Shown here: positions 6,347 to 50,790 of the stretch, one piece after another | How the letters are laid out: every line of letters begins with the position of its first letter | Position numbering within the stretch: the first letter of the stretch is position 1 | Assembly (NCBI GenBank): GCA_023251835.1 | Contig: JAHEXZ010000017.1 | Span: 2,270-66,269, forward strand | DNA from: Bacteroidota bacterium | Lineage (GTDB): Bacteria; Bacteroidota; Bacteroidia; 2-12-FULL-35-15 | DNA: 64,000 nt | Reading direction: 5' to 3' | Notes under the pieces: model-generated | What the model saw: only the letters and a program-made list of their open reading frames with translations | The model's database searches: none | Told to the model about the DNA's origin: nothing | Made by a program: the position numbers and the translations under genes

Positions 6347-6379
6347 TCAGAATAAGGTTTAGTTTTATAAAAAGCGATG

Positions 6380-6387: not shown

Positions 6388-6568
6388 GTATATTTTATCC
6401 ACCTAAAAAAGCGATTGACAATTATTTTTTTCTCGTTTTAAAACCAATATTGATAGTATTTTTAAACGACTTAAGCGCATCTTTTTCATACATTATCGAA
6501 TCCCTCTTAAAGGGAACCTCTGATCCGGTTTCTATTTTGCTTACATACATTGGTATAACAAAATAATG

Positions 6569-6576
6569 TAAATTTG
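6569..6576 (+). promoter_or_regulatory. candidate -7 box (TAAATTTG) upstream of ribF
   Basis: Exact TAnnTTTG 33 nt before the ribF ATG. A TTG lies at 6550-6552, 16 nt upstream. Confidence 0.35.
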
Positions 6577-6609
6577 CTATTGTCTTAAACCAAGAGTAAA
6601 GCGTTTAGA

Positions 6610-7539: not shown

Positions 7540-7564
7540 GATTCAGTATAGTTACTGGTTATTG

Positions 7565-8197: not shown

Positions 8198-8237
8198 GAT
8201 TTGTTGATTTGTTGATTTGGTGATTTGGTGATTTGGT
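8198..8237. repeat. tandem octamer repeat (gatttgkt)x5
   Basis: gatttgtt gatttgtt gatttggt gatttggt gatttggt starts directly after the stop codon at 8195-8197. Confidence 0.95.
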
Positions 8238-8294
8238 AAACTGTTGAACTGGGGGAATTGTTAAATTTTGATTAAACGTTGTCAGTAAAACAAA

Positions 8295-22073: not shown

Positions 22074-25000
22074 TTATTTGCCTTCACGGATGAGGGAGAA
22101 AGAACCTTTTTCAAAATATTCTTTTCCATCTTTTCCTTTGGCTTTAATGATGTAATAATAGGTTCCGTCAGAAGCTATCCCCCCGCTGGCTGTGCGACCA
22201 TCCCAACCTCCATTAGTTGTATGCCACTCAAATAATTTTTCTCCCCAGCGATTGAATATCTCTGCATCCAGAGTTCTTAAGGATACTCCCTTTACCATAA
22301 ATATATCATTTTCTCCATCACCATTAGGTGTAAATACATTAGGTACAACAAATGAGGAATTCTGTTCTACTTCAATAGTAGTGCATGTTGTATCTGTACA
22401 TGAGAAAGAGTTATATGCAATTAAACATATCTGGAATTCCCCAGGAGGAATAACTACATAAATTGGATTTGTAGCTGTTGAAGTATCAGTCATTCCAAAC
22501 TGCCATAAATAGTGAGTTGCATTTGTACTTCCGTTAGTTAAATTAATCGTTAAAGGCGATTGACCTGTAACAGGGTCTACAGAAAATGCTGAAATAACAC
22601 CTGAAGTAGAATTTATAACATACGGTCCGGCAATACTGGAACAGCCATTAGTATCAGTTATTGTTAATGAATATGAACCGGGAACTGCATTTGACAATTC
22701 AGGACCAACAAGACTTACTGTGTCACCCAATATATTTTGCCAAACAAAAGTTAAAGGACTTTGCCCCTGAGGCACAGCCAATCCTAATATAGCTCCGGCA
22801 CTATCTGCACAATTAGCAGGCACTATAGTCACTGTAATGGTACCCACCGTTGGCAAAGGAATGACTGTAACCGGCACTGTTATAGGATTTCCCTCACAAC
22901 CATTTACATTAGATGTTACAATGTAAGTAGCAATTCCCTGATTAATTCCGCTGGTAGTTAATATTTGAGAAATTGTTGATCCTGTCCCTGCGGTAGCTCC
23001 GGAAACACCCGTTTGATTTACTGTCCAACTATAAATAGTTCCAGCCATAGAGCTTGAAAGGTTTACAGATGTTGTATCACCAGTACATATAGTCTGGCTG
23101 GCTGGTGTTGCAGTTATAACAGGTACTCCATTAATAATGATGATGGTAGATGCACTTGCTGCAAGACAACCACCACTTGCAGGAATATTGTTGGTAACAA
23201 TATAAGTTCCGGGCGCACTTGCCGAAATATCTATCTCGCCCGTATTAACATGTTCAAATACTAGACCGGACGGAGTAGATGAAAATAATCCGGCACTGGC
23301 TCCGGGAGCAAAAATTACATACGGATTATTTCCTCCCTGACAGAATGATGAACTTGAATAAGTAAAACCTGCTAATGGTGTTGTATCAGTTATTGTCATT
23401 GTTATAGAACCAGAACCTGTACAAGTTCCATTTACAGTATAATAGAGCGTATAAACGCCTATATTGCTGGCAGATAAATCAATTGTTCCTGTTGCAGAAT
23501 CAATCGCTAAACCTAAAGGAACGGCTGAAAAAACACCTCCGGATATACCAGTAATTATAGGTGTTGGATCTGAACCGGATTGGCAATAGGTAGCAGAGGT
23601 ATATACAAATGATGCATCGTCAGATGGCGTAATAGTAACTGTACTTGTTGCACTGTCTGAGAAACAATTACCACTTGCAGGGATAGTATTTGTAATAGTA
23701 TATGTACCAGGCTCGCTAAGTGCCAGATTAATCTCTCCGGTATTAACATTTACAAATACCAATCCTGATGGAGCAGAGGAGAAAATTCCTGCACTTCCAC
23801 CAGAGCTGTATGTTGGTGATGGATTATTGCCATTTTGACAGAAAGGGGACGCAGGGTAGCTGAAATCCGAAACTGGGATAGTGTCTGTAATAGTTACCAC
23901 AATAGAATTGGAGTTTTGGCAGATACTATTTGTTGTATAAGTAACTGTATAAGTACCCAGTTGGCTTGTTGATAATGTAATTGTACCGGTTGAATCATTT
24001 ATTACCAATCCTGAAGGGCTTGAAGAAAAGGAGCCTCCACCAACTCCTGTAACGGATGGAGTCGGGTTTGTTCCTGATTGACAATAGGTGGCTGAACTAT
24101 AGTTAAATGAAGCATCATCAGATGAATTTATAATTATGGTATCCGTTGAACTGGAAGACAGGCATGAACCGCTGACAGGTATATAATTGGTAACTATATA
24201 AGTGCCCGGTGAACTCGCAGCTAAATCTATTTCACCTGTATTAACATGCGCAAAAACTAAACCAGGAGGAGTAGCAGAATAAATACCAGCACTTGCTCCT
24301 GTATCATATACAGGAATAGGGTTTATTCCATTCAAACAGAAAGGAGAACCTGTATAATTAAAGTTTGTTGATGGAGTTGTATCTGTTATAGTCATCACTA
24401 TTGAACTTGTTGCAGGGCAGTTTCCATCAGTAGTATAAGATACTGTATAAACTCCCGTATTACTTGCGGAAAGGTCTATTGTACCGGTTAACGAATCAAT
24501 TACCAAACCCGTTGGAATTGAAGTGAAAAGCCCCCCTGGTAAACCTGTAATTGAAGGTGTCGGATTATCTCCCGAAGTACAATAAGTAGCCGAAGTATAA
24601 GCAAAAGAAGCATCATCAGCTAAAGTAACTGTAACTGTTGAAGTCCAGGTGGCAGATAAACACGAACCACTGGCAGGTATATAATTAGTAATGGTATAAG
24701 TGCCTGGAGTACTTGCAGCTAAATCTATTTCCCCGGTATTTTCATGCACAAATACCAGGCCTGAAGAGCTGGCGGAAAAGATACCCGCACTCGCTCCTAA
24801 AGGGAAAATCGGTAATGGATTGGCTCCATTTTGGCAGTAAGATGGGCTCGAATAGCTATATATCGCTGCCGGATTTGTATTACCTATTGTCATTGTAATA
24901 GAACTCGAGCTTACACATGAACCGTTACTTACCGTATACGTAACTGTATAGACACCCAAAGTGCTAACAGACGGATTAATTGTACCAGTTAAAGAATCAA

Positions 25001-28000
25001 TTGATAAACCACCCGGAGAGAATGTGAAAACTCCACCGGTCATTCCTGTTATGGAAGGAGTTTGATTTGTTCCAGACTGGCAATATGTAGCAGAGCTGTA
25101 AACAAATGAGGCATCACCTGAAGGCGTTACACTAACCAAAGCAGTTATTGGAGCACCCGGACAACCATTTGAAGAAGGTATTATAGTATATATTACCATT
25201 CCGGTATCAATGCCGGTAACAGATAATGTTTGAGAAATAACTGTATCAATTGCAGCACTTGCTCCAGAGACTCCTGATTGGCTTACTGTCCAGCTATAAA
25301 TACTACCAGGGATATTGCTTGCAAAATTTATCAGAGCAGTACCACCAGAACATATTGTCTGCGAACTAGGAATAGCAATGGCTATCGGTGGTGGATTTAC
25401 GGTTATATTAACCGATATAGTATCTCCTGTACATGCTCCGGTAGATGGAGTAATTATATATGTAGCTGAGCCAGGTAATGCTCCCTGTAATGTTAAAGTT
25501 TGATTAATCACAGAGTCACTACCTGCTGAAGCTCCGGTAGTACCAGTTTGAGTTACTGTCCAGCTATAACTTGTACCTGAAAGAGAGCTTGATAAAGCTA
25601 TTGAAGTGCTATTTCCTGAACAAATAGATTGTGAAGAAGGAGTGGCCATTGCTATCAGCGGTACTATTGTGATAGTAGTAGAATCAATAAGCGATCCACA
25701 GCCACCATTCGGAACAAGAGTATTTGTAATTACATATGTTCCGATTGTGCTTGCAGCCAGATTAATTTCTCCTGTAGTGCTATCTGCAAAAACTAAACCC
25801 GAAGGAGTGGCTGAGAAAACTCCGGCAACTGCCCCTGAATCTAAAACAGGTAACGGATTAGTACCACTTTGACAGAAAGAAGTATCCGGATATGTGAAAC
25901 CTGCACCTGGTGCTGGTATAATTGTAACATAAACTACGCTGGAATCAGAGCAGGAACCATTTGTTTTATATTGTACGGTATGAAGTCCTACCTGACTGGC
26001 ACTCAAATCAAGTAATCCGGTTAATGAATCTAATAAAACCAAGCCAGATGAAGCCGAAAAAGTTCCTCCTGGTAATCCGGTTACCACAGCCATCGGATCA
26101 ACCCCTGTCTGGCAAAAAACAGGCGAAGAATAGGAGAATTGGGTACTGTCCATCAAATTAACAGTTATCAATACGTGAATGGTGTCACCAAGACAGGTAC
26201 CTCCAACCGGAGTAATTATATACTCAGCCGTACCAGATGTAGTACCTGAAACAGCTAAAGTTTGTGCGATAGAGGTTCCGGAACCAGGAGTAGCTCCTGT
26301 AACCCCAATCTGATTTACTATCCATGAAAAAGAAGTACCAGCAACATCACTAGACAGAGTAATTCCTGTAGTACTTCCGGTACATATAATTTGTGACGAA
26401 GGAGTAGCTTTAATAGTTGGTGAAGGATTTACAAGTATAATAACATCTATAGATGTTCCGGGACAACCTGTAGTTGTATCCGTTGCAGTAACAGTATAAA
26501 CTGCCTTCCCCTGAATACTGTCTGTAGCTATTATTGTTTGATTAATAATTGAACCGCTATCATTCGTAGCTCCAGTAACATCTGTTTGGGTTACCGTCCA
26601 GGCAAAAGTAGATGAATTTATATTGCTATACAGAACCACATTAGAACTTTCACCTGAACAAATAACCTGGGTTGTAGGTGTAGCAGTTAAAGTTGGAGCA
26701 GGATTTACTGTAACTGTTGCCGTAGTTGGTAATCCGGGACATCCGCCTTGAGCCGTAGGTGTAACAGTATAGGTAACTGTTCCGGAAACGCTGCCACTTG
26801 CGGACAGGATATGCATAATTGTATCACCATTTCCATCAGATGCACCAGTAACCCCTAACTGACTTGCAATCCATGCATAAGTGGTACCGGGTACATTACT
26901 TGTTAAAACAATAAAAGCTGAATCGCCTGTACATATAGTTTGTGATACAGGGCTTGCCGTTACTGTTGGCAAGGGATTAACAGTAACTGTTACGGGTATA
27001 GGTATGCCATCACAACCATTAGCAGATAAAGAAACAAGGTAGGTAACAGTACCCACAGAATTGCCTGTTGTTGTTAATGTTTGAGCGATAGCGTCACCAA
27101 TACCATTAGAAGCACCAGTAACACCTGTTGCAGTAGCTGTCCAGGAGAAAGTAGTGCCAATAATGTTACTCGAAAGTGATATTGATGTTGAATTTCCTGA
27201 GCATATTGCCTGAGTGGACGGAATGGAAGTGCCAATGGGACAAGGATTAACAGTAATAGGAACATCTATAGGTTGTCCAGGACAATTCCCCGATGTAGCT
27301 ATTATTGTATATATAGCAGTTCCGGAACTGAGTCCGGTGGTATATAAGGTTTGAGCTATGGTGTCACCAGTTCCTGAGGAAGTTCCTGAAACATTGGTTG
27401 CATTGACTGTCCATGCATAAGTGGTAGCAGGCAATGAACTTGTCAATACAATACCAGTTGAGCCACCAGCACAAATTGTTGCTAATGGCGGAGTTGCAGT
27501 TACTACCGGAGCAGCATCAATTGTTATTGAGTATGTCGCAACAGCTCCCCCACATGATCCACTAGCTGGTATTGTATTGGTAATTGTGTAGGTACCAGGG
27601 GCACTATTCATTAAATCAATTTCACCCGTATTTACCATTACAAATTCTAAACCGGCCGGTGTTGCTGAATAAATACCAGGTGTTGCACCGGCACCATAAA
27701 TTGGCGTTGGATTAGTTCCATATTGACAGAAGGGAGATCCCAGATAGCTAAAACTGGCAGATGGATTGGTATTAGCTATTGTCATATTTATAGAAGCAGT
27801 ATTAGGACAAGTACCATTTGTTGTATAGGAAAGTGTGTATGTGCCTAAAGCGCTTGCAGATAAATCAATTGCACCGGTTGATGGATTAACCATTAAGCTA
27901 AAAGGAGGTGTTGTTGATGCAAATGTTCCACCAGGCAAGCCAGTTATAGTCGGAGTAGGATCAGCACCATCCTGACAATAAGTAGCTGAAGTGTATGCAA

Positions 28001-31000
28001 AAGAAGCATCATCCAAAAGATTAACAGTAGCAGTAACATTGATTGGGGTTCCGGAACAGCCATTTGCTGAAGGGGTAATAGTATATACAGCCGTACCCGG
28101 AATAGTTCCGGTAGTTGTTATTGTTTGAACAATATTTCCTCCTGAACCAGGTGATGCTCCTGTAACATCCGTTTCCACAACAGTCCAGGCATAAGTAGTT
28201 CCCAATACAGTACTCGACAATGCAATTGATGATGTTGCTCCGGAACAGAATGTTTGCGCTGGAGGCGTAGCTGTAATATCCGGTAAAGGATTAACAGTAA
28301 TGCTTACAGTTATTGGCGTACCAGAACAAGTTCCGGAGGCAGGAGTTACAGTATAAACTACAGTACCTACAGTTGATCCGGTTGCTATTAACGTATGAGC
28401 AATAGTATCACCGCTACCGTTGGATGCTCCGGAAGCTCCATTTTGGCTGACTGTCCATGAATAGGTTGTTCCTGCTATATTGCTTGTTAAAAGTATAGTA
28501 ACAGAATCTCCGGAGCAAATCGTTTTATTTGAAGGTAAGGCTGTTGCAACGAGGGTTGGTTTCACAGTAACAGGAACTGAAATTGGAGAGCCGGAACATC
28601 CCCCGGCCACCGGATTAATAATATATAACGCTGTTCCTGGTACTGTTGCCGATAAAGTTTGAGAAATTGATGTACCACTACCAGGTGTTGCACCAGTCAC
28701 ATTATTCTGACTAACTGTCCATGAAAATATTGTACCTGAAACATTGCTGGACAGAGCAATGCTGGTGCTATTACCAGAGCAGATAGTCTGCACATTTGGA
28801 GTTGCAGTAATAACAGGTCTGGGATTTACTGTTACAGTAACTGTTGCAGAATTTCCCGGACAACCGCCTGCTGTTGGAGTTATCGTATATACAGCAGTTC
28901 CAGGAAGCGAATCCGTAGTTGTTAATGACTGTACAATATTTTGTCCTGTACCGGCAATTGCCCCAGCCACGCCATTTTGAGCAACTGTCCAGGAATAAGT
29001 AGTTCCGGAAATATTGCTGGATAGAGCAATTGATGTAGCATCACCAGAACAAATTGTTTGAGCAGAAGGATTAATAGTTACAACAGGTCTTGGCGTTACA
29101 GTTATAACTACAGTAATTGGCGCTCCTGAACATCCGTTAGCGAAGGGTGTAATGGTGTATGTAACCGTACCCGGAGTTGAGCCAAAGGTTGCTGATAAAA
29201 TTTGTGATATTACAGAACCATTACCAGGGGCTGCACCGGAGGCACCACTCTGTGCAGCAGTCCAAGAAAAGGTAGTTCCTGTAACATTACTAGTTAACAC
29301 TATTGAAGTTGAATCACCGGAACAAATTGTTTGTGCTGTCGGTGTGGCAGTTGCAACAGCGGCAGGATTTACAGTTATTGTAACCGAGACAGGAGTACCT
29401 GAACACCCGGCAGCAACAGGGGTTATAGTATAAACAACAGTTCCGGCAAGAGTATCTGTAGCTGTCAATGGTTCTGAAATAAGTTGGCCTGAGCCTGAAT
29501 TTGCACCTGTCACTCCTGTTTGAGTTGCAGTCCAATTAAAATTTGTTCCTGAAACAGTGCTCGTAAGAACTACTAAAGGTGAATTTCCGGAACAAATAAT
29601 TTGTGCTGATGGAACTGCAGTTGCTGAAGGAATTGGATTAACAGTAACTGTTATTGTTATTGGTAACCCCGTACATCCACCAGCATAGGGCGTAATAATA
29701 TATACCGCAGTACCAGGAGAGTTGCTGGTGGTAGCTAATACTTGATCTATTGAAGTTCCGTTTCCATCAGAACCACCGGAAACTCCATTTTGAACAACTG
29801 TCCAGGTATAGATTGTTCCAGGCATTGTGCTTGTTAAATTAAACGATGTGGTATCACCAGAGCATAATGATTGTGTTAAAGCGTTTGCTGTTACTGTAGG
29901 AGCAGAGTCAATTGTAACAGTAAATGAAGCCAGCTCTGCCGCACATGTACCGCCAGGTGGAATTGTATTTGTGACTGTGTAAGTTCCTGGCTGGCTTTGT
30001 GATAGGTCAATTTCACCAGTATTCACGTGAACAAATGCCATACCGGAAGGGGAAGCAGTAAAAATACCGGCACTGGCTCCAACACCAAAAACAGGAACAG
30101 GGTTGGTTCCTTGCTGACAATAAGAGGTAGCAGGATAACTAAATACCGCAGAAGGAGCAATGCTTATAGTCATGGTCATGGAATTAGTTACCGGGCATTG
30201 ACCATTTGTAGTATATGATAATGTATAAGAACCTAAAGCGCTGGTGGAATTGGTAATAGTACCAGTTGTTGGATTGAGCGTCAAACCGGCAGGTGTTGAC
30301 GAAAATACCCCTCCAGGCAAACCAGTAATAGTTGGTGTAGGATTAGGTGCCGTCTGACAATAAGTACCTGATGTATAAGCATAGGTGGCATCATCAGAAG
30401 GCTTTACAGTAACGGTAACATTAATTGGCGTTCCATTACATCCACTTGCTAAAGGGGTGATTGTATATACAGCAGTTCCTGAAGTATGATTTGTGCTTGT
30501 ATTTGTTAATACTTGGGAAATAGTATTTCCTCCATTTGCAATTGCTCCTGAAACATTTGTTTGCAATACATACCAGGAAAAAGTAGTTCCGGCCACATTG
30601 CTTGATAATACAATAGCAGTGGTATCCTCAGAACAAATATTGGGTGACGGAGGAGTAGCTGTGACAACAGGCCGCGGATTTACAGTAACTGTATCAGAAA
30701 CAGGAGTACCCGGGCATGAGTTAAAAGTGGGCGTAACAGTATAAACTACGCTACCAGGAGTTGTGCCGGAAGCAGTTAAAGTTTGAGCAATTGTATTTCC
30801 ACTACTGGCAAAAGCACCTGCAGCACCGATTTGATTGATTGCCCAAATAAAAGTGGTACCAGGAATGTTACTAACCAAAGATATTAAAGTAGTATCACCA
30901 GAACAAATAGTTAAAGGATTAGGGACAGGAGTAACCACAGGTCGTGGTTTCACAGTTATTGTTACAGATATAGGTGTGCCGGAACATCCACCGGCAGCAT

Positions 31001-34000
31001 TAGGAGTAATGGTGTATGCAGCAGTTCCATCTATTATTCCCGTAGCGCTTATTGTATCGGTTATACTGTAGCCGGAACCGGGATTTGCACCAGATACCCC
31101 GGAAGGAACAACAGACCATGTAAAAGTAGTACCTATAACATTACTTGTTAATGCTATCGAAGTTACTCCACCCGAACAAAATGTTTGCGATACGGGTGTT
31201 GCAGTAGCAACCGGAACCGGATAAACGGTAACCGTATCATTTACAGGAGTTCCGGTACAACCAGCGGCTGTAGGTGTTATAGTATATATTGCTGTTCCGC
31301 TTGTAGTACCAGTTGTTGACAATGTTTGATAAATATTAGAACCATTGCTGTTAGACCCACCCGTTACTCCGGATTCTGCAACTGTCCAGGCATAAGTTGT
31401 ACCAGGCACATTGCTGGTTAAGGCTATAGAAGTAGTTCCAAAAGAACACAATGATTCTGACGGAGGAGTGGCTGTTACAACTGGACGTGGGTTTACAGTA
31501 ACTGTGGCAACAATAGATGTTCCTGAACAACCGTATACAGCAGGAGTAATCGTATAAACAACTATTCCAGGAACTGTATTTGTTGCGGTTAAAGTTTGTG
31601 TAATAGAAGAACCATTACCATCAGAAGCTCCGGAAACATTTGTTTGGTTGAATGTCCAGGCAAAAGCAGTTCCCGAAACATCACTTGTTAAATTTATAGA
31701 GGTTGTATCTCCTGAACATATTGTTGGAGCTGCAGGAGTTGCTGTAGCAATAGGTACCGGATTTACATATACACTATCAACTAAAGTGGTTCCACTACAG
31801 CCGTTTGCTGAGGGGGTAATAGTATAAGCAATTGATCCGGGTGCCGGGCTAGTTGTTGTTAATGTTTGTGCAATTGTTAAACCAGAACCAGCTGATCCAC
31901 CAGACACATTTGTATCGGCTATAGTCCATGTGAAAAGAACACCTGCTACGTTACTTGTTAATGTTATATTTGCCGTAGAACCGGAACATATTGTTTGAAC
32001 AGTTGGAGTAGCCGTTATAGAAGGTATTGGGTTTACTGTTACAGTAACAGTTATCGGTTGACCGGAACAACCACTTGGAGCCGTAGGTATAATGGTGTAG
32101 ATAACATTACCAGTTACATTTCCAGTGGTGGATAACGTTTGTGCAATTGAAGTTCCATTTCCATTTGATGCTCCGGATACACCCGTTGGATTTACAGTCC
32201 AGACAAAAGTAGTAGCGGGTATTGAACTTGTTAAATTAATTCCAGTTGTACTTCCGGAACATAAAGTCTGTGAAGCTGGTGTTGCGGTGGCAACTGGTGC
32301 TGTATTAATAACAATTGATACCGAATCAACATCTCCAGGGCAAGCTCCGGGAGCAATTGTATTTTTAACTGTGTATGTACCAGGAGTGCTTAAAGTTAAA
32401 TCAATTACACCTGTTGCAGGATTTACAAATACCAGGCCTGATGGAGTTGCAGAAAAAATTCCCGCACTTGCACCCACAGGAAAAACAGGTGCCCTATTTG
32501 TATCATACTGGCAAACCGGAACAGGAGTATAGCCAAAAGCCGCATCAGGAAGCGTTACAATTGTAACGTTCACGGTACTTGTAGCAGGGCAAGGGCCGTT
32601 AGTTGTATATGTAATAGCATAAGTACCAACAGTGCTTGCTGACAGGTTAATCTTTCCGGAATTCACATTTACAAATACCAATCCGGCAGGAGCTGCAGTG
32701 AACGTACCCCCAGCCAAACCTGTAATTGTAGGTGTAGGATTAGGCTCTGTCTGACAATAGGTTGATGAAGCATAATTAAAAGCAGGGTTATCCTGTTTAT
32801 TCACAGTAACAACAACATTTTCAGGAGCTCCCACACATCCATTTGTGGAAGATGGGGTTATTGAATAAATAACGCTTCCGACTGTGGGACCGGTAAGAGT
32901 TAACGTTTGTGCAATGTTAGAACCAGAACCCGCTGATGCTCCCGTAACCCCCGTTTGGTTAATTGTCCAGGTGAATGTTGTACCACTGATATTGCTTGAT
33001 AATGCAATGGCTGTAGAGGAGCCGGAACAAATTGATTGAGCATTAGGAGTTGCTATAACAGTAGGCCTGGGATTAACTGTTATAGTAACCGTTATTGGCT
33101 GACCGGGGCAATTGCCATAAGTAGGGACAACGGTATACGTTACAGTTCCTGCTGTTATGCCTGTAGCTGATAAAATCTGAGTAATTGCAGTTCCATTGCC
33201 GGCTGTAGCGCCCGATGCACCTGTCTGATTAATCGTCCAGGCGAAAGTGGTTCCAGGTATATTGCTGGTTAATGCAATTGAAGTTGCATCACCGGAACAA
33301 ATTGTTTGAACAGAGGGAGTAGCAGTTGCAACAGGAACTCTGTCTACCTGGATATTGACTATTATAGGAGAACCTATACAACCAGAAGCAGTGGGGGTAA
33401 CTGTATATACAGCAACACCTGATGTACTTCCGGTTGTTGAAAGAGTTTCAGTAATAGAAGTACCGGAAGAAGCAGAGCCCCCGGTTACATTGCTTTGGCT
33501 TATTGTCCAGGAAAAGGAAGCTCCCACAACATTGCTTGTTAGTGCAATTCCTGTAATATTTCCGGAGCATATTGTTTGCGAAGGAGGTACTGCACTGGCG
33601 GTTGGTATTGGGTTTACTGTCACCGGAACAGTAATAGGAACGCCCACACATCCTGTTCCGCTAACTGTTGGAGTAACTGTATAAACAGCCGTTCCTATAG
33701 AAGAACCTGTAGTAGATAGTGGTTGAACAATACTGGAGCCATTGCCCGGAGAACCTCCTGTTACACCCGTTTGGGCAACAGTCCATGCAAAAGTAGTACC
33801 TGGTAAGTTACTTGAAAGTGAGATAGAGGTTGTACTTCCTGAACACAAACTTTGTGATGAAGGTGTAGCTGTAGCAGTTGGTTTAGGATTAACAGTAATT
33901 GTTACCTGGATAGAGCTGCCAATACAGGAACCCACAGAAGGAGTGATGGTGTATGTGACGGTTCCGGATGAAGTACCTGTTGCAGATAGACTTTGCGCAA

Positions 34001-36002
34001 TTGTAGAACCACTTCCCGAAGTAGCTCCTGTAGCACCAACCTGATTAGCAGTCCAGTTAAAAATAGTTCCTGCAACATTGCTTGTTAATATAATTGATGT
34101 TGCATCCCCGGAGCAGACCGTTTGTGTAGCTGGCATAGCAGTGGCAACCGGCAGAGGATTTACGGTAACAGTAGCAGTGATTGGTGTTCCCGTACAATTT
34201 ACTGTAGAAGGAGTAATTGTATACACGGCAGTTCCAGACGTACTTCCTGTAGTTGCAAGGGTTTGTGAAATCGAAGAACCAGAACCCGGTGCACCTCCTG
34301 TCACACCACTTTGATTTATTGACCAGTTAAAGGAGGCTGTTGATACATTGCTTGACAAGGCTATTGATGTTATACCCCCCGAACAGATTATCTGAGTGGA
34401 CGGTGTAGCCGTTGCATTTGGAACAGGGTTAACAACAATTGTTACAGTTATTGGACTACCCACACAACCGCCTGCTGTTGGAGTAACAGTGTACACAGCA
34501 GTTCCTGTAGTACTACCTGTGGTAGACAATGTCTGTGATATGGTAGAACCATTTCCAGGGGAAGCACCTGATACTCCGGATTGTGAAACTGTCCAGCTAT
34601 AGGTAGTACCACCGATAGAACTGCTTAATGCAACAGAAGTAGTATTTCCGGAACATATTGATTGAGTGGAAGGAGAAGCTGTTGCAACAGGAGCAGAATT
34701 AACATTAACTGTAACTTGAGCACAACCAGTTGTATTGCAGGTTCCGGATGCTAAAACATAATAAGTAGTTGAGGAGGAAGGAGATACCGTAATTGAGTTA
34801 CCTGTTCCAATGAATGTTCCAGCACAAGCTCCGGAATACCAGAGGTAAGAAGCTCCAATACCTAAGGAGCCACCATTTTGTGTAAGGGTAACGGAACCAC
34901 CGCAACTGGGGTTAGGACTTGCAGTAATAGAGCTTGGAGCAGTTGATGAAGCACCGGCAATTACAGTAACTGAGGCACATGCCGTAGTATTACAAGCACC
35001 TTCAGCTCTTACAAAATAAGCAGTAGTACCACTTGGCGTGACGCTAATGGAAGATCCGGAACCAACATAAGTTCCTCCACAACTTCCGGAATACCATTTC
35101 CAAGAAGCACCTGTTCCTAATGAACCACCGGAAACGCTTAATACAGTGGAACCACCACCGCAAACGGGGTTAGGGCTGGCACTGGCAGAAGAAGGAGCAG
35201 TAGATGATGAATTAACGGTAACTGTAACTGAAGCACAACCGGTAGTATTACAATTTCCTTCAGCTCTTACATAGTATGTTGTAGTTGAGCCAGGTGATAC
35301 GTTGATAGAGGAGCCACTTCCAACATAAGAACCACCACAGCCTCCTGTGTACCATTTCCACGATGCACCGGTACCAAGTGAGCCACCATTTACATTTAAT
35401 GTTGTAGAGCCACCACAGGTTGTAATCGGGCTAGCGCTTGCTGAAGAAGGGGCTGCAGACTGAACGCATACAGGAGCATAAGTGAATGTAATTGTAGCAC
35501 TAGATACACATACTGCCTGGTAGCTGTCACCACCGCTAACAGTTATTTGTAAACAATTGCTTCCACCATAACTATAGCCAGAAATAGGGCCAGACAAACA
35601 GTATGTCTGTGGCCAGCAATTCCCACACCAACAGTCACCTATAGGGGGCAAACATTGAATAGTTGTTCCATCTATTGATGTGCATAAAGTTCCGTAACCG
35701 CAATCAGCTTTATAAACTGTTACACATGTACTGGTAATTACGTTTCCCGGGGGTATTGGATCTGTAAAACATTTAATGCCATTGTTCCAATCTCCACTTC
35801 CAGACCACGGTGGATTACAGGCATAAGAAGCACCACCACAAATAGTACACCAACCAGTTGACCAATATACTGTTGTTGAGACGGATTGGGCATTTCCTTT
35901 ATGCGACAATAAAAAAGCAAATACAAAAAAAACACATAAAAATACGTTCTTACGCAGAGTCTGGTAAAAAAGGCTGATTGGTCTATTAGTAGTTATACCC
36001 AT
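22074..36002 (-). CDS. giant cell-surface repeat protein (about 4640 aa) with T9SS type B C-terminal domain
   Basis: One uninterrupted ORF. The track starts it at TTG 36035, but ATG 36002 (MGITTNRPI...) is more likely. It has a signal, a 14-Cys head, 3 WKWY units, 29 A units, 8 B modules, an SprB-like repeat, a PKD domain, and the CTD FTPNGDGENDIF...FNRWGEK...DGTYYYIIKA. Confidence 0.9.
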   Translation of the reverse strand: MGITTNRPISLFYQTLRKNVFLCVFFVFAFLLSHKGNAQSVSTTVYWSTGWCTICGGASYACNPPWSGSGDWNNGIKCFTDPIPPGNVITSTCVTVYKADCGYGTLCTSIDGTTIQCLPPIGDCWCGNCWPQTYCLSGPISGYSYGGSNCLQITVSGGDSYQAVCVSSATITFTYAPVCVQSAAPSSASASPITTCGGSTTLNVNGGSLGTGASWKWYTGGCGGSYVGSGSSINVSPGSTTTYYVRAEGNCNTTGCASVTVTVNSSSTAPSSASASPNPVCGGGSTVLSVSGGSLGTGASWKWYSGSCGGTYVGSGSSISVTPSGTTAYFVRAEGACNTTACASVTVIAGASSTAPSSITASPNPSCGGSVTLTQNGGSLGIGASYLWYSGACAGTFIGTGNSITVSPSSSTTYYVLASGTCNTTGCAQVTVNVNSAPVATASPSTQSICSGNTTSVALSSSIGGTTYSWTVSQSGVSGASPGNGSTISQTLSTTGSTTGTAVYTVTPTAGGCVGSPITVTIVVNPVPNATATPSTQIICSGGITSIALSSNVSTASFNWSINQSGVTGGAPGSGSSISQTLATTGSTSGTAVYTITPSTVNCTGTPITATVTVNPLPVATAMPATQTVCSGDATSIILTSNVAGTIFNWTANQVGATGATSGSGSTIAQSLSATGTSSGTVTYTITPSVGSCIGSSIQVTITVNPKPTATATPSSQSLCSGSTTSISLSSNLPGTTFAWTVAQTGVTGGSPGNGSSIVQPLSTTGSSIGTAVYTVTPTVSGTGCVGVPITVPVTVNPIPTASAVPPSQTICSGNITGIALTSNVVGASFSWTISQSNVTGGSASSGTSITETLSTTGSTSGVAVYTVTPTASGCIGSPIIVNIQVDRVPVATATPSVQTICSGDATSIALTSNIPGTTFAWTINQTGASGATAGNGTAITQILSATGITAGTVTYTVVPTYGNCPGQPITVTITVNPRPTVIATPNAQSICSGSSTAIALSSNISGTTFTWTINQTGVTGASAGSGSNIAQTLTLTGPTVGSVIYSITPSSTNGCVGAPENVVVTVNKQDNPAFNYASSTYCQTEPNPTPTITGLAGGTFTAAPAGLVFVNVNSGKINLSASTVGTYAITYTTNGPCPATSTVNVTIVTLPDAAFGYTPVPVCQYDTNRAPVFPVGASAGIFSATPSGLVFVNPATGVIDLTLSTPGTYTVKNTIAPGACPGDVDSVSIVINTAPVATATPASQTLCSGSTTGINLTSSIPATTFVWTVNPTGVSGASNGNGTSIAQTLSTTGNVTGNVIYTIIPTAPSGCSGQPITVTVTVNPIPSITATPTVQTICSGSTANITLTSNVAGVLFTWTIADTNVSGGSAGSGLTIAQTLTTTSPAPGSIAYTITPSANGCSGTTLVDSVYVNPVPIATATPAAPTICSGDTTSINLTSDVSGTAFAWTFNQTNVSGASDGNGSSITQTLTATNTVPGIVVYTITPAVYGCSGTSIVATVTVNPRPVVTATPPSESLCSFGTTSIALTSNVPGTTYAWTVAESGVTGGSNSNGSNIYQTLSTTGTTSGTAIYTITPTAAGCTGTPVNDTVTVYPVPVATATPVSQTFCSGGVTSIALTSNVIGTTFTWSVVPSGVSGANPGSGYSITDTISATGIIDGTAAYTITPNAAGGCSGTPISVTITVKPRPVVTPVPNPLTICSGDTTLISLVSNIPGTTFIWAINQIGAAGAFASSGNTIAQTLTASGTTPGSVVYTVTPTFNSCPGTPVSDTVTVNPRPVVTATPPSPNICSEDTTAIVLSSNVAGTTFSWYVLQTNVSGAIANGGNTISQVLTNTSTNHTSGTAVYTITPLASGCNGTPINVTVTVKPSDDATYAYTSGTYCQTAPNPTPTITGLPGGVFSSTPAGLTLNPTTGTITNSTSALGSYTLSYTTNGQCPVTNSMTMTISIAPSAVFSYPATSYCQQGTNPVPVFGVGASAGIFTASPSGMAFVHVNTGEIDLSQSQPGTYTVTNTIPPGGTCAAELASFTVTIDSAPTVTANALTQSLCSGDTTSFNLTSTMPGTIYTWTVVQNGVSGGSDGNGTSIDQVLATTSNSPGTAVYIITPYAGGCTGLPITITVTVNPIPSATAVPSAQIICSGNSPLVVLTSTVSGTNFNWTATQTGVTGANSGSGQLISEPLTATDTLAGTVVYTITPVAAGCSGTPVSVTITVNPAAVATATPTAQTICSGDSTSIVLTSNVTGTTFSWTAAQSGASGAAPGNGSVISQILSATFGSTPGTVTYTITPFANGCSGAPITVVITVTPRPVVTINPSAQTICSGDATSIALSSNISGTTYSWTVAQNGVAGAIAGTGQNIVQSLTTTDSLPGTAVYTITPTAGGCPGNSATVTVTVNPRPVITATPNVQTICSGNSTSIALSSNVSGTIFSWTVSQNNVTGATPGSGTSISQTLSATVPGTALYIINPVAGGCSGSPISVPVTVKPTLVATALPSNKTICSGDSVTILLTSNIAGTTYSWTVSQNGASGASNGSGDTIAHTLIATGSTVGTVVYTVTPASGTCSGTPITVSITVNPLPDITATPPAQTFCSGATSSIALSSTVLGTTYAWTVVETDVTGASPGSGGNIVQTITTTGTIPGTAVYTITPSANGCSGTPINVTATVNLLDDASFAYTSATYCQDGADPTPTITGLPGGTFASTTPPFSLMVNPSTGAIDLSASALGTYTLSYTTNGTCPNTASINMTIANTNPSASFSYLGSPFCQYGTNPTPIYGAGATPGIYSATPAGLEFVMVNTGEIDLMNSAPGTYTITNTIPASGSCGGAVATYSITIDAAPVVTATPPLATICAGGSTGIVLTSSLPATTYAWTVNATNVSGTSSGTGDTIAQTLYTTGLSSGTAIYTIIATSGNCPGQPIDVPITVNPCPIGTSIPSTQAICSGNSTSISLSSNIIGTTFSWTATATGVTGASNGIGDAIAQTLTTTGNSVGTVTYLVSLSANGCDGIPIPVTVTVNPLPTVTASPVSQTICTGDSAFIVLTSNVPGTTYAWIASQLGVTGASDGNGDTIMHILSASGSVSGTVTYTVTPTAQGGCPGLPTTATVTVNPAPTLTATPTTQVICSGESSNVVLYSNINSSTFAWTVTQTDVTGATNDSGSIINQTIIATDSIQGKAVYTVTATDTTTGCPGTSIDVIILVNPSPTIKATPSSQIICTGSTTGITLSSDVAGTSFSWIVNQIGVTGATPGSGTSIAQTLAVSGTTSGTAEYIITPVGGTCLGDTIHVLITVNLMDSTQFSYSSPVFCQTGVDPMAVVTGLPGGTFSASSGLVLLDSLTGLLDLSASQVGLHTVQYKTNGSCSDSSVVYVTIIPAPGAGFTYPDTSFCQSGTNPLPVLDSGAVAGVFSATPSGLVFADSTTGEINLAASTIGTYVITNTLVPNGGCGSLIDSTTITIVPLIAMATPSSQSICSGNSTSIALSSSLSGTSYSWTVTQTGTTGASAGSDSVINQTLTLQGALPGSATYIITPSTGACTGDTISVNITVNPPPIAIAIPSSQTICSGGTALINFASNIPGSIYSWTVSQSGVSGASAAIDTVISQTLSVTGIDTGMVIYTIIPSSNGCPGAPITALVSVTPSGDASFVYSSATYCQSGTNQTPSITGMTGGVFTFSPGGLSIDSLTGTINPSVSTLGVYTVTYTVSNGSCVSSSSITMTIGNTNPAAIYSYSSPSYCQNGANPLPIFPLGASAGIFSASSSGLVFVHENTGEIDLAASTPGTYTITNYIPASGSCLSATWTSTVTVTLADDASFAYTSATYCTSGDNPTPSITGLPGGLFTSIPTGLVIDSLTGTIDLSASNTGVYTVSYTTDGNCPATSSIVMTITDTTPSTNFNYTGSPFCLNGINPIPVYDTGASAGIYSATPPGLVFAHVNTGEIDLAASSPGTYIVTNYIPVSGSCLSSSSTDTIIINSSDDASFNYSSATYCQSGTNPTPSVTGVGGGSFSSSPSGLVINDSTGTITLSTSQLGTYTVTYTTNSICQNSNSIVVTITDTIPVSDFSYPASPFCQNGNNPSPTYSSGGSAGIFSSAPSGLVFVNVNTGEINLALSEPGTYTITNTIPASGNCFSDSATSTVTITPSDDASFVYTSATYCQSGSDPTPIITGISGGVFSAVPLGLAIDSATGTIDLSASNIGVYTLYYTVNGTCTGSGSITMTITDTTPLAGFTYSSSSFCQGGNNPYVIFAPGASAGLFSSTPSGLVFEHVNTGEIDISASAPGTYIVTNNIPASGGCLAASASTIIIINGVPVITATPASQTICTGDTTSVNLSSSMAGTIYSWTVNQTGVSGATAGTGSTISQILTTSGINQGIATYIVTSNVNGCEGNPITVPVTVIPLPTVGTITVTIVPANCADSAGAILGLAVPQGQSPLTFVWQNILGDTVSLVGPELSNAVPGSYSLTITDTNGCSSIAGPYVINSTSGVISAFSVDPVTGQSPLTINLTNGSTNATHYLWQFGMTDTSTATNPIYVVIPPGEFQICLIAYNSFSCTDTTCTTIEVEQNSSFVVPNVFTPNGDGENDIFMVKGVSLRTLDAEIFNRWGEKLFEWHTTNGGWDGRTASGGIASDGTYYYIIKAKGKDGKEYFEKGSFSLIREGK
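23140..25125 (-). repeat. array of four consecutive B modules (B5-B8)
   Basis: Modules start at GDASFVYSSATYCQ, DDASFAYTSATYCT, DDASFNYSSATYCQ and DDASFVYTSATYCQ. Spacing is about 166 aa. Confidence 0.8.
27512..34694 (-). repeat. three tandem ~2.4-kb super-repeats, each seven A units plus one B module
   Basis: B modules begin at aa ~1082, ~1881 and ~2675, a period of about 795-800 aa. Seven Q-x-(I/L/F/V)-C-S-G-initiated A units sit between them. Confidence 0.8.
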
Positions 36003-36036
36003 ATTTTTTAATGCGCCTAAAAAACAATAATACAAT

Positions 36037-36841: not shown

Positions 36842-39800
36842 TTACTTTGCACGAATCAATATAAAAGTGCCTTTTTCAAAATATTCCTTTCCATCTATCC
36901 CTGAAGCTTTAATTATATAATAATATGATCCATCAGAAGCATTAATACCGGCAGAAGTACGGCCACTCCATCCACCATTAACAGTATGCCATTCAAATAT
37001 TTTTTCACCCCAACGGTTGTATATTTCTGCATCCATTTTTACAAGTCCAACACCTTGCACAGTAAATATATCATTGATGTTATCATCATTTGGAGTAAAT
37101 ACATTCGGAATAACAAATACAGAATTAAGGAAAACATCAACTGTGTCGCAAATACTATCTATACATCCGGTTGGGCTAATTGCTGTCAGGCAAACAGTAG
37201 ACTGTCCGAGCGGTAAATAGGTATATACAGGGTTAATCAGATTTGATGTATCGCCAGTACCGAAATCCCAAAGATAGTTTGATGCACCAATACTTGTATT
37301 CGTAAAATTAATTGTAAACGGTGTTTGACCAATTAATGTATCGGCAGTATATTGTGCAATAACGGGAGGTGTGGCAATTATAGAGAATGAAGCGGCAGTA
37401 ATGGTACAACCATTTGTATCAGTAACTGTTAATGTGTATATTCCAGGAGGAACACTATCCAAATCAACATTATTTTCTACAACAGTTCCTAATGTATCTG
37501 TCCAAACATATTGAAAAGGAGGTTGTCCTGTTATCATTGTTATACCAGAAATACCACCTGTAGGATTCCCACAGTTGGCAAGTGTTGTAACTGCGGATGA
37601 TATATTGGCAACAGGCAAAAAGTTAACATATACAATAACGTCAATGGGTGCCCCTGCACAACCGCCAGCAGTTGAAGTAACTGTATATACTGCTGTTCCA
37701 GGAATATTTCCCGTAAGGTTTAGAGTTTGTGTAATAGAAGGCCCTGTGCCTGCAGAAGCTCCAGATACACCCGTTTCAACAACTGTCCAGAAACAGTTTG
37801 TCCCCCCCATGGAACTACTTAGCGTAATAGAAGTGGATCCTCCTATACATATAGTTTGAGGAGAAGGCGTGGCAGTAATAACAGGAGCGGGATTAATAAT
37901 AACTACAGCTGTTCCGGTTGCTGAATCACAAGAGCCACTTGCAGGAATGGTATTAATTACGTTATAGGTACCGGCAGCACTGGCTGTTAAATCAATTTCA
38001 CCGGTATTTACATTTACAAATACCAAACCGGCAGGGGTGGCAGAAAAAATTCCGGCACTTGAACCCGGAACAAAAGCAGGTAAAGGGTTTGGTGCACCCT
38101 GACAATAAGGGTCATCAATATAGCTGAAAAATGCAGAAGGTGTAGTATCTGCTATTGTCATCATTATAGAACTTGAGTTAGGACAAGCACCATTTGTTGT
38201 ATATGTGAGGGTGTATGTTCCCAGGGCACTTGTAAATAAATTGATTGTACCAGTTGAGGGGTTAATTGACAGCCCAACAGGAGAGGAAGAAAAGGTTCCC
38301 CCAGGCAGGCCGGTTATTACAGGTGTGGGGTTCGTTCCGGAAGTACAATATGTTGCAGAAGAGTAGGTAAAAGAGGCATCATCGCTCGCAGATACTGTGA
38401 TGGTAGTTGTAGCGCTTACCGCATTACAAGAACCACTTACAGGTATAGTATTGGTGACGGTATAAGTACCAGGAGTACTGGCAGCCAAATCAATTTCTCC
38501 GGTATTAACATGCACAAACACTAAACCTGAAGGAGTGACGGAGAAAATACCTGCACTTGCACCAGTAGCAAAAACAGGAAAAACACTACCAACCTGGCAA
38601 AAAGAGGCAGTTGAATAAGTGAAAGTAGCAGCAGGGTTAGCATTAATGATAGTCATTGTAATGGAACTGGCATTGGGACAGCTTCCATTTGTTGTGTATG
38701 AGAGCGTATAGGTTCCCAAATTACTGACAGATAAATTAATAGTTCCTGTAGAAGGATTAATTGATAACCCGGGAGGAATTGCTGAAAAAACACCACCGCT
38801 TAAACCAGTAATTGAAGGTGTTGGATTTATTCCGGAAGTACAATATGTTGCAGAAGAGTAGACAAAGGATGCGTCATCCGGTGCATTTATGGTAACTGTA
38901 TCTATAGCACTTATAGCATTGCAGGTACCACTTTGAGGAATTGTATTTGTAACAATATAGGTACCAGGAGCACTTGCAGAAAGGTCTACCTCACCAGTAT
39001 TTACATGCGCAAATATCAGCCCAACAGGAGTGGCTGAAAAAATACCTGCACTTGCACCAAAGGCAAAAGTTGGGAAAGGACTTGTTGTATTTTGACAGAA
39101 AGGTGAACCAGCATAGCTGAAAGTTGCAGAAGGGTTTGCATCAATGATTGTCATTGTTATTGAGCTGGCGTTTGGACAAACACCATTTGTTGTGTATGAC
39201 AATGTATATATACCTAACGCACTTGCAGACAAATTGATTTCGCCTGTTGAAGGGTTGATTGATAATCCGTTAGGAATTGCAGAAAATGTGCCACCAGATA
39301 AACCGGTAATTGCAGGTGTTGGGTTATTTCCAGACTGGCAATAGGTTGCAGATGTATATACAAAAGAGGCATCATCAGCAGAAATTATAATAACAGTTGT
39401 TGATGCACTTATTGCATTACATGTTCCACTGGAAGGGATAGAATTGGTAACTGTATAGGTACCAGGAGCAGAGGAAGATAAATCTATTTCACCTGTATTC
39501 AAATTGGAAAACACTAACCCCACAGGAATTGCAGAAAAAATACCTGCACTTGCACCGGGAGCGTAAACAGGAAGGAGATTACTTCCATTTTGACAAAAGG
39601 CAGGAGAAGTATAACTAAACATAGCTGATGGTGTGGTATTAGTAATTGTCATCGTTATAGAACTTATACCCGGACATGAGCCGCTTGTTGTATAAGTAAG
39701 CGTATAGCTACCTAAAGCACTATTCGCAAGATCAATAGTACCTGTGGAAGGATTTAGTGCCAATCCTATGGGAGTGGAAGAAAAAATTCCTCCAGGCACT

Positions 39801-49821: not shown

Positions 49822-50790
49822 TTAGAAATAACGCGGTGAAACAAATGGTGGTTTTGACATACTGAAGTCATAACTTAACATTATTTCGTGGGTGCTGCCT
49901 AATTGTCTTGCCGGTTTATTAATGCCAAAATCATAGGCATATCCTATTTTAAATTTATTATTGATATAGAACTGGGTATAAGCCACAATTCCGTATTTTA
50001 TGCGAGCAGAAATTCCCAGCCATAAGCGTTGTTGAAGTAAGAAACTAAGATTAATATCAGCGGTTGGTGGACTGTTCTTCACAGCTTTCAGCATAAAGGA
50101 AGGGTTGAAAATTAATTTTTCGGACAGTTCCCAGGCTTTGCCACCTGTTAAAAAGACATGGTATTCTAACCTTGAAGAATCGATCGTACTTCCTATTGGT
50201 TTTTGAAGGTGCCCCCTATCGAGGTGTGTCATACTAAGACCTGCATACGTAGTATTTGTATAATAGTAAACCCCGGCATCAGCTGTATACGTTATGACGG
50301 TTGAAGGGGCATTGAATTGATCGTTTGCCTCCTCAAAATCATGCTCTCCATAGCTATATTTATATTGATAAATACCTAATCTTAAACCCATGGACAGTTT
50401 ACCTTTTCCAAGTTTTATACGATATGCGTAAGAACCTAATATCCCATTGGTATTCTTAGGCCCTATCCTATCATTTGTAAAAGCAAAACCCAAAGCCACT
50501 TTTCTTTTGCGCATGGGACTATGTACTGTTAGAGAACCTGTTTTCGGAGCGCCATCAAAACCCCACTGATCTCGATAAAACATAGTAGTACTGATTGCTT
50601 CTTTAGCTCCTGCGTAGGCAGGGTTTATTGCCAACTGATTAAACATATACTGACTATACTGAGGGTCTTGTTGAGCAAATATGTTTATTTTTAAGGAGAA
50701 AAAAAACAATAAAGAAAAAGACAATAAAACTATCTCTTTTCTATAATTCCATTGAGGGAGGTAATTTACTTTATTATTTTTTTTTTTCAT
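49822..50790 (-). CDS. PorP/SprF-family type IX secretion system membrane protein
   Basis: The N-terminal hallmark is QQDPQYSQYMFNQLAINPAYAG. Its size and its alternating beta-strand character fit PorP/SprF. Confidence 0.9.
   Translation of the reverse strand: MKKKNNKVNYLPQWNYRKEIVLLSFSLLFFFSLKINIFAQQDPQYSQYMFNQLAINPAYAGAKEAISTTMFYRDQWGFDGAPKTGSLTVHSPMRKRKVALGFAFTNDRIGPKNTNGILGSYAYRIKLGKGKLSMGLRLGIYQYKYSYGEHDFEEANDQFNAPSTVITYTADAGVYYYTNTTYAGLSMTHLDRGHLQKPIGSTIDSSRLEYHVFLTGGKAWELSEKLIFNPSFMLKAVKNSPPTADINLSFLLQQRLWLGISARIKYGIVAYTQFYINNKFKIGYAYDFGINKPARQLGSTHEIMLSYDFSMSKPPFVSPRYF

Follow-up and report, generated by a model that had tools for sequence, protein, structure and literature searches.

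The giant gene and its locus

The window (the whole stretch of DNA that was analysed, 64,000 nucleotides) carries on its minus strand a very large gene whose 4,653-residue product is a surface protein, a giant adhesin, of an uncultured Bacteroidota bacterium (Table 1). The figure of 4653 codons takes a TTG as the start; in the database the gene is called from the ATG at 36002, for a product of 4642 aa, and P0022, likewise 4642 aa long, is 100% identical to the giant protein. Pfam assigned PKD_5, Ig_7 and CHU_C domains to the protein, PKD_5 (PF19406) being matched above its gathering score in 29 stretches totalling 980 bits. The body consists almost wholly of about 50 small beta-sandwich domains.

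Table 1. Features of the giant gene and of its surroundings (window coordinates)
Feature	Position	Strand	Basis
Whole giant gene	22074..36035	minus	ORF list, translation
Head, aa 1-450: putative signal peptide, Cys-rich N-terminal domain, three Ig_7 (PF19081)	34686..36035	minus	translation, Pfam
Super-repeat copy 1, aa 451-1248: seven PKD_5 (aa 451-1083) + B1 (aa 1084-1248)	32292..34685	minus	HMM domain tables, blastn HSPs at offsets 2394 and 4791
Super-repeat copy 2, aa 1249-2047: seven PKD_5 (aa 1249-1882) + B2 (aa 1883-2047)	29895..32291	minus	as copy 1
Super-repeat copy 3, aa 2048-2844: seven PKD_5 (aa 2048-2675) + B3 (aa 2676-2844)	27504..29894	minus	as copy 1
Probable truncated fourth copy, aa 2845-3461: five PKD_5 + divergent B4	25653..27503	minus	
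Two PKD_5 units, aa 3462-3641	25113..25652	minus	
Four tandem B modules, aa 3642-4306	23118..25112	minus	
Last PKD_5 unit, aa 4307-4396	22848..23117	minus	
C-terminal region, aa 4397-4653 + stop codon	22074..22847	minus	Pfam, TIGR04131
1709-aa paralogue, layout A4-B4-A1	16239..21368	minus	HMM parsing
1776-aa paralogue, layout A2-B6-A1	36842..42172	minus	HMM parsing
PorP/SprF-family T9SS outer-membrane protein	49822..50790	minus	PF11751, 241.9 bits, E 1.2e-71

At the N-terminus, the translation shows a hydrophobic stretch followed by ...GNAQ; Pfam had no family for aa 41-190 of the head. The C-terminal region contains an SprB-repeat-like stretch without Pfam confirmation, a weak PKD match and a T9SS type B sorting domain, detected both by TIGR04131 at aa 4564-4650 (49.7 bits, cut-off 35) and as CHU_C, PF13585 (65.4 bits, cut-off 27). 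The SprB repeat family PF13573 was matched neither in the whole protein at E<=0.01 nor in the C-terminal 258 aa at E<=0.1. By these sequence matches, the giant protein is a predicted T9SS type-B cargo. Three further CHU_C proteins are encoded on the same strand, in addition to a PorP/SprF gene that heads the same-strand cluster about 14 kb upstream of the giant gene, four genes away.

Domain layout and the 2.39-kb period

PKD_5 domains (A units) and B modules were called with profile HMMs trained on units of the gene itself, which recovered the same 29 A units as Pfam. The resulting layout is head - A7-B - A7-B - A7-B - A5-B - A2 - B4 - A1 - C-terminal region, that is, 29 A units and 8 B modules. 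The A-blocks begin at aa 451, 1249 and 2048 and so recur every 798/799 aa (2394/2397 nt), and the three full blocks together cover 27504-34685 of the minus strand. An initial annotation made from the sequence had proposed the same layout, with 29+5+3 A units in the gene and its two neighbours, a span of 27512-34694 for the three blocks, B modules starting at about aa 1082, 1881 and 2675 and a period of about 795-800 aa. HMM parsing of all three genes returned this layout and these counts, and placed the B starts at aa 1084, 1883 and 2676/2677. The A4-B4-A1 layout given there for the 1709-aa paralogue was also recovered, and it is plausible that this neighbour represents an unexpanded version of the giant gene.

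No Pfam family scored above cut-off on the B module, and an AlphaFold2 model of one B module (pLDDT 93.9) consists of two tandem beta-sandwiches. A tree of the B modules of the window alone was a star and became informative only when orthologue consensus sequences were included. One branch of moderate support (84/93) then separated the interspersed from the tandem modules; the latter (aa 3642-4306) belong to the type found in the B arrays of the two neighbouring paralogues (1709 and 1776 aa). B4 paired with the B4 of a longer paralogue (support 100/100), and modules 1-3 were not resolved as mutual closest relatives in either the window-only or the consensus tree.

The period is also visible in the DNA. 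When the gene was compared with itself by blastn, the top off-diagonal HSP lay at offset 2394 and aligned gene nt 1379-6151 with 3773-8542 (4.9 kb, 62.5% identity, 353 bits), while the fourth-strongest lay at offset 4791 (2632 nt, 62.4% identity); thus both diagonals anticipated in the initial annotation, at about 2.39 and 4.8 kb, are present. Tandem Repeats Finder reported no arrays between 20 and 38 kb of the window, because the copies are too diverged. A global profile of DNA identity per offset showed peaks at many multiples of 270 nt, its 2.39-kb signal being divided by indels over offsets 2391, 2394 and 2397; this profile was dropped as uninformative and unit-based tests were used instead.

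Family members were collected within a length filter of 0.55-1.75x. Thirteen metagenomic orthologues of 4639-4658 aa have a layout identical to that of the giant protein, so that the copy-number variation hoped for in the initial annotation was not seen among them. Their units are about 70% identical in amino acids to those of the window, far closer than in-register paralogous units are to each other (about 57%), which indicates that the units have evolved independently since before speciation. The family also comprises a long paralogue class of about 5,520 aa. Scored only against blocks 1 and 2 of the short class, its block 3 maps to positions 1-7 in order. Blocks 1 and 2 of the long class contain 11 and 12 units, so block size has not been immutable, and these units gave no clean order when mapped onto positions 1-7.

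In-register similarity of the A units

In the window protein, mean amino acid identity was 57.5% between units at the same position of different blocks, 54.3% between adjacent units and 53.2% between units at different positions of other blocks. With orthologues included, pairs within a block (54.6%) were about as similar as different-position pairs between blocks (54.1%). The earlier claim that equivalent positions resemble each other more than neighbours do therefore holds on average (57.5% vs about 54%) but is weak: the in-register excess is only about 3 identity points, and the raw best match was in register for only 4 of the 21 units of the window protein. The motifs cited as an example, in unit 6 of blocks 1 and 2, were found in the translation.

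The in-register similarity, small as it is, is real. When each unit's general consensus-likeness was removed by double-centring before permutation, the excess reached z 4.4-4.5 in the window protein, a value attained in 0/20,000 permutations, and z 5.2 with profiles from 14 orthologues. For all three block pairs, register 0 beat every other cyclic shift of the seven positions (+2.3 to +2.4 vs -1.9 to +0.8 points). In leave-one-block-out typing, 14/21 units were assigned correctly when orthologue profiles were used and 12 when the window protein was the only source, where 3 are expected by chance; each orthologue taken singly gave 6-13 correct assignments.

In the unit trees, position labels clustered (4/300 shuffles as low), as expected in the initial annotation, and block labels did not (253/300). 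Seven clean position-specific clades were not recovered; single-unit trees inferred by maximum likelihood over 90 columns, whether from the window or from orthologue consensus sequences, were mostly unresolved, with only one starred branch of 26-34. Positions 3 and 6 form one indistinguishable type, position 1 resembles 4 and position 5 resembles 7, which suggests that the cassette of seven A units and one B module holds an older three-unit sub-repeat. A nested three-unit period is also seen as 810/813-nt HSPs in each block. The units of block 4 were typed 1, 2, 3, ambiguous and 7, and the two units of block 5, weakly, as positions 1 and 7; by this typing, both blocks resemble cassettes that have been truncated.

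The signal is not evenly spread: it is strongest at positions 1 and 7 and almost absent at position 2. Units flanking B modules are of type 7 before and type 1 after the module in other family members also, namely the 1709-aa and 1776-aa neighbours and P0024, a 2658-aa relative. Part of the in-register signal could thus come from junction constraints instead of ancestry. This bears on a convergent origin, in which the blocks would have reached seven units separately, by duplicating one unit at a time, their same-position likeness reflecting not common descent of the block but shared structural or functional constraint (how far a unit lies from the B module, the interfaces between domains, or a periodic partner). 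The strength of positions 1 and 7, the flanking types across the wider family and the lack of a synonymous-site signal that would prove descent are what such an origin would lead one to see. However, the internal positions 2-6, with the B-adjacent positions 1 and 7 dropped, are significant alone (z 3.7; in an exhaustive permutation, 0.056% of 14,400 arrangements reached the observed value, p 6e-4). Moreover, local expansion predicts that units cluster by block, which they do not (54.6% vs 54.1%), three separate arrivals at seven units in the same type order are unparsimonious, and the DNA aligns over long, unbroken stretches at offsets 2394 and 4791, as expected of a single duplicated segment. 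We therefore regard convergence as unlikely.

That the 7-7-7 pattern and its weak similarity arose by chance, or by an assembly or alignment artefact, might be suggested by the mostly out-of-register raw best matches and by the blank Tandem Repeats Finder result. This reading is refuted by the layout shared identically by 13 independent assemblies, by the register tests (several permutation and cross-validation tests being significant), by the DNA diagonals and by the mapping of the long paralogue; besides, an assembler can neither collapse nor inflate copies with only 62% DNA identity. We give it practically no credence.

Origin of the cassette and comparison with known systems

The block duplication is ancient, and synonymous sites are saturated: comparison of synonymous sites or third positions between blocks showed no in-register excess (z 0.2-1.0), so that synonymous sites cannot date or order the duplications. 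The same result speaks against register-preserving gene conversion between blocks, a form of concerted evolution that would not need a single duplication origin. Codon identity at identical residues is raised at position 7 (0.51-0.60 vs a background of about 0.43), and two units share a 101-nt patch that is 81% identical, as conversion might leave behind. However, that patch connects the out-of-register units 1.6 and 3.4, DNA identity between blocks is only about 62%, and the orthologous units are far closer to each other than the in-register paralogous ones. Conversion as the source of the register is accordingly very improbable.

All together, the comparisons of sequence make it quite likely that the A7+B cassette of 2.39 kb was duplicated in tandem as a whole, long ago, and is now frozen at three full copies. 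The segmental duplication of the whole eight-domain block put forward in the initial annotation is thus supported by the diagonals, the register tests, the clustering by position and block 3 of the long paralogue. An evolutionary scenario may be suggested. The cassette itself would have been assembled earlier from the three-unit sub-repeat; seven PKD_5 units and one two-lobed B module would then have been duplicated in tandem as a single piece, likely by unequal recombination or replication slippage between similar units. The outcome would be three complete copies, probably with a fourth from which internal units were later lost. This duplication would be older than the divergence of all 14 orthologues examined, and older than, or of about the same age as, the split from the ~5,520-aa class. 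The copies would since have drifted to about 57% amino acid and 61-62% nucleotide identity, probably too low for homologous recombination, which would leave the layout frozen and account for the constant copy number.

The duplication may have lengthened a stalk by which the Cys-rich N-terminal head is kept at a distance from the cell. Given the size of Ig-like domains, each cassette of about nine domains would add some 30-35 nm. The B modules would act as regular punctuation of this stalk, the adjoining units having their own conserved types, 7 before and 1 after. It is also conceivable, if rather doubtful, that the cassette register is kept by selection and that the fibril serves as a periodic scaffold or molecular ruler. 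If so, position-specific surfaces recurring every nine or so beta-sandwich domains would engage a partner that is itself periodic, which might be adjacent fibrils of the same kind, the paralogues encoded alongside, or a cell-surface or substrate structure with regular spacing. The constancy of 29 A units and 8 B modules in 14 orthologues would then reflect function and not only lost recombination substrates, as would the position identities across the two paralogue classes, and the protein would be a bacterial analogue of the A-band super-repeats of titin.

The duplication scenario traces a growth path for a giant bacterial surface protein, from a three-unit repeat to an eight-module cassette to whole-gene paralogues, after which the copies diverged and the architecture became exactly fixed across related lineages. 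This is useful for annotation and assembly: divergence between the repeats is sufficient for reliable assembly, and the domain count is therefore trustworthy. A defined cassette and its junction unit types (7-B-1) are also available for structural work on T9SS fibrils.

A literature search for super-repeats in T9SS adhesins returned nothing on topic. The G5-E repeats of SasG/Aap and the FIVAR-GA modules of Ebh are two-domain units, often near-identical and of variable copy number. The giant protein is like them in using a repeated unit of more than one domain as a stalk; unlike them, its unit comprises eight modules (nine beta-sandwiches), diverged long ago and occurs in a constant number of copies. 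It shares with SprB and the giant T9SS adhesins with type-B C-terminal domains the TIGR04131/PF13585 domain, its very large size, a body of repeated beta-sandwiches and the presence of a PorP/SprF gene at the locus (PMC9143113), but, unlike SprB, it has no PF13573 match and its body is made of PKD_5 units and B modules.

The mechanism is not new: block duplication of domain repeats is well documented, and duplication of several domains at once is a known mode of repeat growth (PMC1553488). The closest parallels are the super-repeats of the titin A-band (7- and 11-domain Ig/FnIII) and of nebulin (seven-module), in which a fixed domain order is likewise repeated blockwise, several domains were duplicated at once and domains at equivalent positions are more alike than neighbours (PMC10665226, PMC1553488). 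Indeed, A7-B occurs three times in tandem, with greater similarity between equivalent positions, as in such multi-domain super-repeats. The giant protein differs from titin and nebulin in being bacterial and extracellular, in being built of PKD_5 and a two-lobed B module and not of Ig/FnIII, and in having only three full copies with a much weaker in-register identity. Finally, the titin and nebulin super-repeats match the periodicity of the thick and thin filaments, whereas the giant protein has no known periodic binding partner.

Gene, product and domain layout

The super-repeat is contained within a single minus-strand ORF of 4653 codons from TTG. The ORF list takes this TTG (36035) as the gene start, whereas the database call (P0022, the identical protein at 4642 aa) starts 11 codons in, at ATG 36002, the likelier of the two; residues are numbered here on the 4653-aa version, following the initial annotation. 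Pfam matched PKD_5 (PF19406) 29 times, Ig_7 (PF19081) in the head and CHU_C at the C-terminus, NCBIfam matched the T9SS type B sorting domain (TIGR04131), and the 4653-codon protein was classed both as a T9SS type B cargo and as a PKD_5 array. From these domain matches and the same-strand gene run (Table), the product is therefore a giant surface protein exported by the T9SS in an uncultured member of the Bacteroidota. Residues 4397-4482 (window 22590-22847), initially labelled SprB-like, do have the look of an SprB repeat (…NCADSAGAI…PLTFVW…), but Pfam matched no SprB repeat (PF13573) there at E<=0.1, and we do not class the protein as SprB.

Profile HMMs were built from the gene's own A units (~90-aa PKD_5 repeats) and B modules (~166 aa, two-lobed) and run against the three window paralogues. 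They reproduced exactly the layout first proposed for the giant protein, with a block period of 798/799 aa (2394/2397 nt), and gave A4-B4-A1 and A2-B6-A1 for the neighbours. AlphaFold2 modelled the B module, from the window's 18 B copies, as two tandem beta-sandwiches (mean pLDDT 93.9), which makes one A7-B cassette nine beta-sandwich domains; Foldseek searches with this model returned only generic two-domain Ig/cadherin-like tandems.

Table. Genes of the locus, segments of the giant protein and position-7 units (nt, window positions; unit x.y, block x, position y)
Feature	Position	Remark
PorP/SprF gene	nt 49822-50790	same strand as giant gene
TPR/PD40/CarboxypepD_reg/OmpA protein	nt 47137-49782	same strand as giant gene
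1195-aa CHU_C protein		same-strand run, listed after TPR/PD40/CarboxypepD_reg/OmpA protein
LRR protein		same-strand run, between 1195-aa CHU_C protein and 1776-aa paralogue
Giant gene	nt 22074-36035	same-strand run, between 1776-aa and 1709-aa paralogues
Head	aa 1-450	
A7, first	aa 451-1083	HMM
B, first	aa 1084-1248	HMM
A7, second	aa 1249-1882	HMM
B, second	aa 1883-2047	HMM
A7, third	aa 2048-2675	HMM
B, third	aa 2676-2844	HMM
A5	aa 2845-3297	HMM
B, fourth	aa 3298-3461	HMM
A2	aa 3462-3641	HMM
B4 (tandem)	aa 3642-4306	HMM
A1	aa 4307-4396	HMM
C-terminal region	aa 4397-4653	
Unit 1.7	nt 31818-32093	
Unit 2.7	nt 29418-29693	
Unit 3.7	nt 28011-28277	

Block period and position-specific similarity

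Tandem Repeats Finder detected no arrays, and a naive identity profile per offset was blurred by indels. By sensitive blastn self-comparison, the top off-diagonal HSP (offset 2394, 353 bits) ran continuously over 4856 columns at 62.5% identity, pairing blocks 1+2 with blocks 2+3, and the fourth-best (offset 4791) paired block 1 with block 3 over 2632 columns at 62.4%; the ~2.39- and ~4.8-kb diagonals predicted for a duplicated block are thus present. All three blocks also contain internal HSPs at offsets 810/813, the mark of a nested period of three units. With only ~62% DNA identity between the copies, an assembly artefact is ruled out, and we consider chance or artefact a scarcely credible source of the pattern.

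The architecture itself accounts in part for the long in-register HSPs, because an alignment can cross a B module only in register, and position-specific similarity therefore needed a separate test. In the window protein, same-position units across blocks shared 57.5% raw identity (range 46-64%), compared with 54.3% for adjacent units and 53.2% for different positions in other blocks. The raw best match was in register for just 4/21 units, because a few consensus-like units (1.1, 1.4, 3.3) resemble all. Once this general consensus-likeness had been removed by double-centring, the in-register statistic exceeded all 20,000 random position reassignments (z 4.4-4.5); the proposal that equivalent positions are more alike than neighbours thus holds on average, but not for raw best matches. 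The in-register excess was also seen at the nucleotide level (z 4.0) and was absent from third positions (z 1.0) and from codon identity at identical residues (z 0.2), indicating that synonymous sites are saturated and the duplication is old. Gene conversion that preserved the register is in our judgement a very improbable origin of the similarity.

Two local features were noted. Codon identity at identical residues was raised in position-7 units alone (0.51-0.60, background ~0.43), which could reflect later conversion near the A-to-B junction or nucleotide-level constraint. A 101-nt patch of 81% identity (background ~62%; window 33235-33335 and 28987-29087, gene nt 2701-2801 and 6949-7049) joins the start of unit 1.6 to that of unit 3.4, an out-of-register pair; it could represent a small tract of gene conversion or an N-terminal strand under strong constraint (QTICSGDATSIAL.SNI.GTT).

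Orthologues, unit types and age

Relatives were gathered by a search with the head region. It returned 13 full-length orthologues (4639-4658 aa, heads 66-86% identical) from independent metagenome assemblies, named 'MAG: PKD-like domain-containing protein [Bacteroidota / Bacteroidia bacterium]' at source, and eight members of a second, long class (~5,520 aa), which shares contigs with the first in several assemblies. The layout A7-B-A7-B-A7-B-A5-B-A2-B4-A1 was identical in 13/13 orthologues; that of the long class is A11-B-A12-B-A7-B-A5-B-A2-B4-A1. Orthologous units were ~70% identical, well above the ~54% between different positions, and each position is therefore an orthologous group.

With position profiles built from 14 orthologues, all three block pairs showed an in-register excess (+2.3 to +2.4 points; z 5.2), and all other cyclic shifts gave -1.9 to +0.8 points. 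Leave-one-block-out typing put 14/21 units in the correct position where chance would give 3 (binomial tail ~6e-8); it scored 12/21 when the window protein was used by itself and 6-13 of 21 with single orthologues. Block 3 of the long class, scored against short-class blocks 1 and 2 only, typed 1, 2, 3, 4, 5, 6, 7 in order. In the neighbours and a 2658-aa relative, B-flanking units tend to type 7 before and type 1 after, so part of the signal at positions 1 and 7 may come from the junction and not from descent; with these positions omitted, z was 3.7 and the observed value was reached in only 0.056% of all 14,400 permutations. That the units converged by position is, in our estimate, unlikely.

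Unit trees were largely without resolution, yet in the tree built from 21 consensus units the position labels did cluster as anticipated, needing fewer changes than 296/300 shuffles. Block labels were no better than random, showing that units had not multiplied locally within blocks. A tree of orthologue-consensus B modules separated the interspersed B of both classes from all tandem B, including those of the neighbours, by one branch of moderate support (84/93).

In a 7x7 position matrix, 3 and 6 fell together as a single type, 1 was similar to 4 and 5 to 7, and 2 was almost without a signature of its own; these shared types, like the 810-nt HSPs, fit a cassette that had in turn been built from a three-unit repeat. 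The units of block 4 typed as 1, 2, 3, ambiguous, 7 and those of block 5 as 1, 7, so that both blocks look like further copies minus internal units. In the long class, the blocks of 11 and 12 units did not map cleanly to positions. In the 2658-aa metagenomic relative (P0024), laid out A3-B-A3-B-A1-B3-A1, the family also has a 3A+B cassette repeated twice, perhaps a previous step in the same kind of growth or one parallel to it.

In-register similarity was 58.7% between short and long block 3; comparisons of short-class blocks with each other, and of short blocks 1 or 2 with long block 3, gave 56.1-57.7%. Judged by these values, the block duplication took place before the gene duplication or at about the same time, and it preceded the divergence of all 14 orthologues. 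Copy number, which the initial annotation proposed to compare among related strains, did not vary among the 14 orthologues including this gene, most simply because cassettes at ~62% DNA identity are too dissimilar to be substrates for homologous recombination any more.

Of 24 other species of the genus, only one was found to have the gene; there, three successive reading frames encode a 4644-aa orthologue, a long-class protein of 5573 aa and a 1740-aa relative (G002:C44:55373-92000). Searched with the head, the window's own genome returned this gene and the 1709-aa neighbour only; with no long-class head found in this assembly (96.6% complete, 171 contigs), the long paralogue is either lost here or missing from the assembly. 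The same genome has 99 PKD_5 matches, among them at least 17 tandem units in a 1876-aa frame running to a contig end (G000:C13:28-4746) and arrays on C89, C76, C132, C27 and C58, and therefore encodes several more giant repeat proteins, some cut by the assembly.

Origin of the cassettes and known systems

Taken as sequence evidence, these comparisons show a common origin of the cassettes, which are best explained as products of an ancient duplication, in tandem, of a 2.39-kb segment holding seven PKD_5 units and one B module. The segmental duplication of the whole eight-domain block put forward in the initial annotation is thus upheld, with the caveats given above. The cassette would have been duplicated by unequal recombination or slippage, lengthening the stalk of a T9SS-anchored fibril (by ~30-35 nm for each cassette, taking Ig-like domains at their usual size), and the super-repeat would since have been frozen by divergence.

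The principle of multi-domain block duplication is not new, and a literature search found no paper on such a super-repeat in T9SS cargo. Growth of domain repeats by duplications of several domains is documented across proteomes, with the seven-domain unit of nebulin as the textbook case (PMC1553488), and tandem duplication of the cassette would resemble nebulin in growing by several domains at a time. Position-specific conservation is seen both here and in the A-band super-repeats of titin (PMC10665226). Like titin, the fibril might engage a periodic partner, and selection might keep the register for that reason, a reading to which we give little weight.
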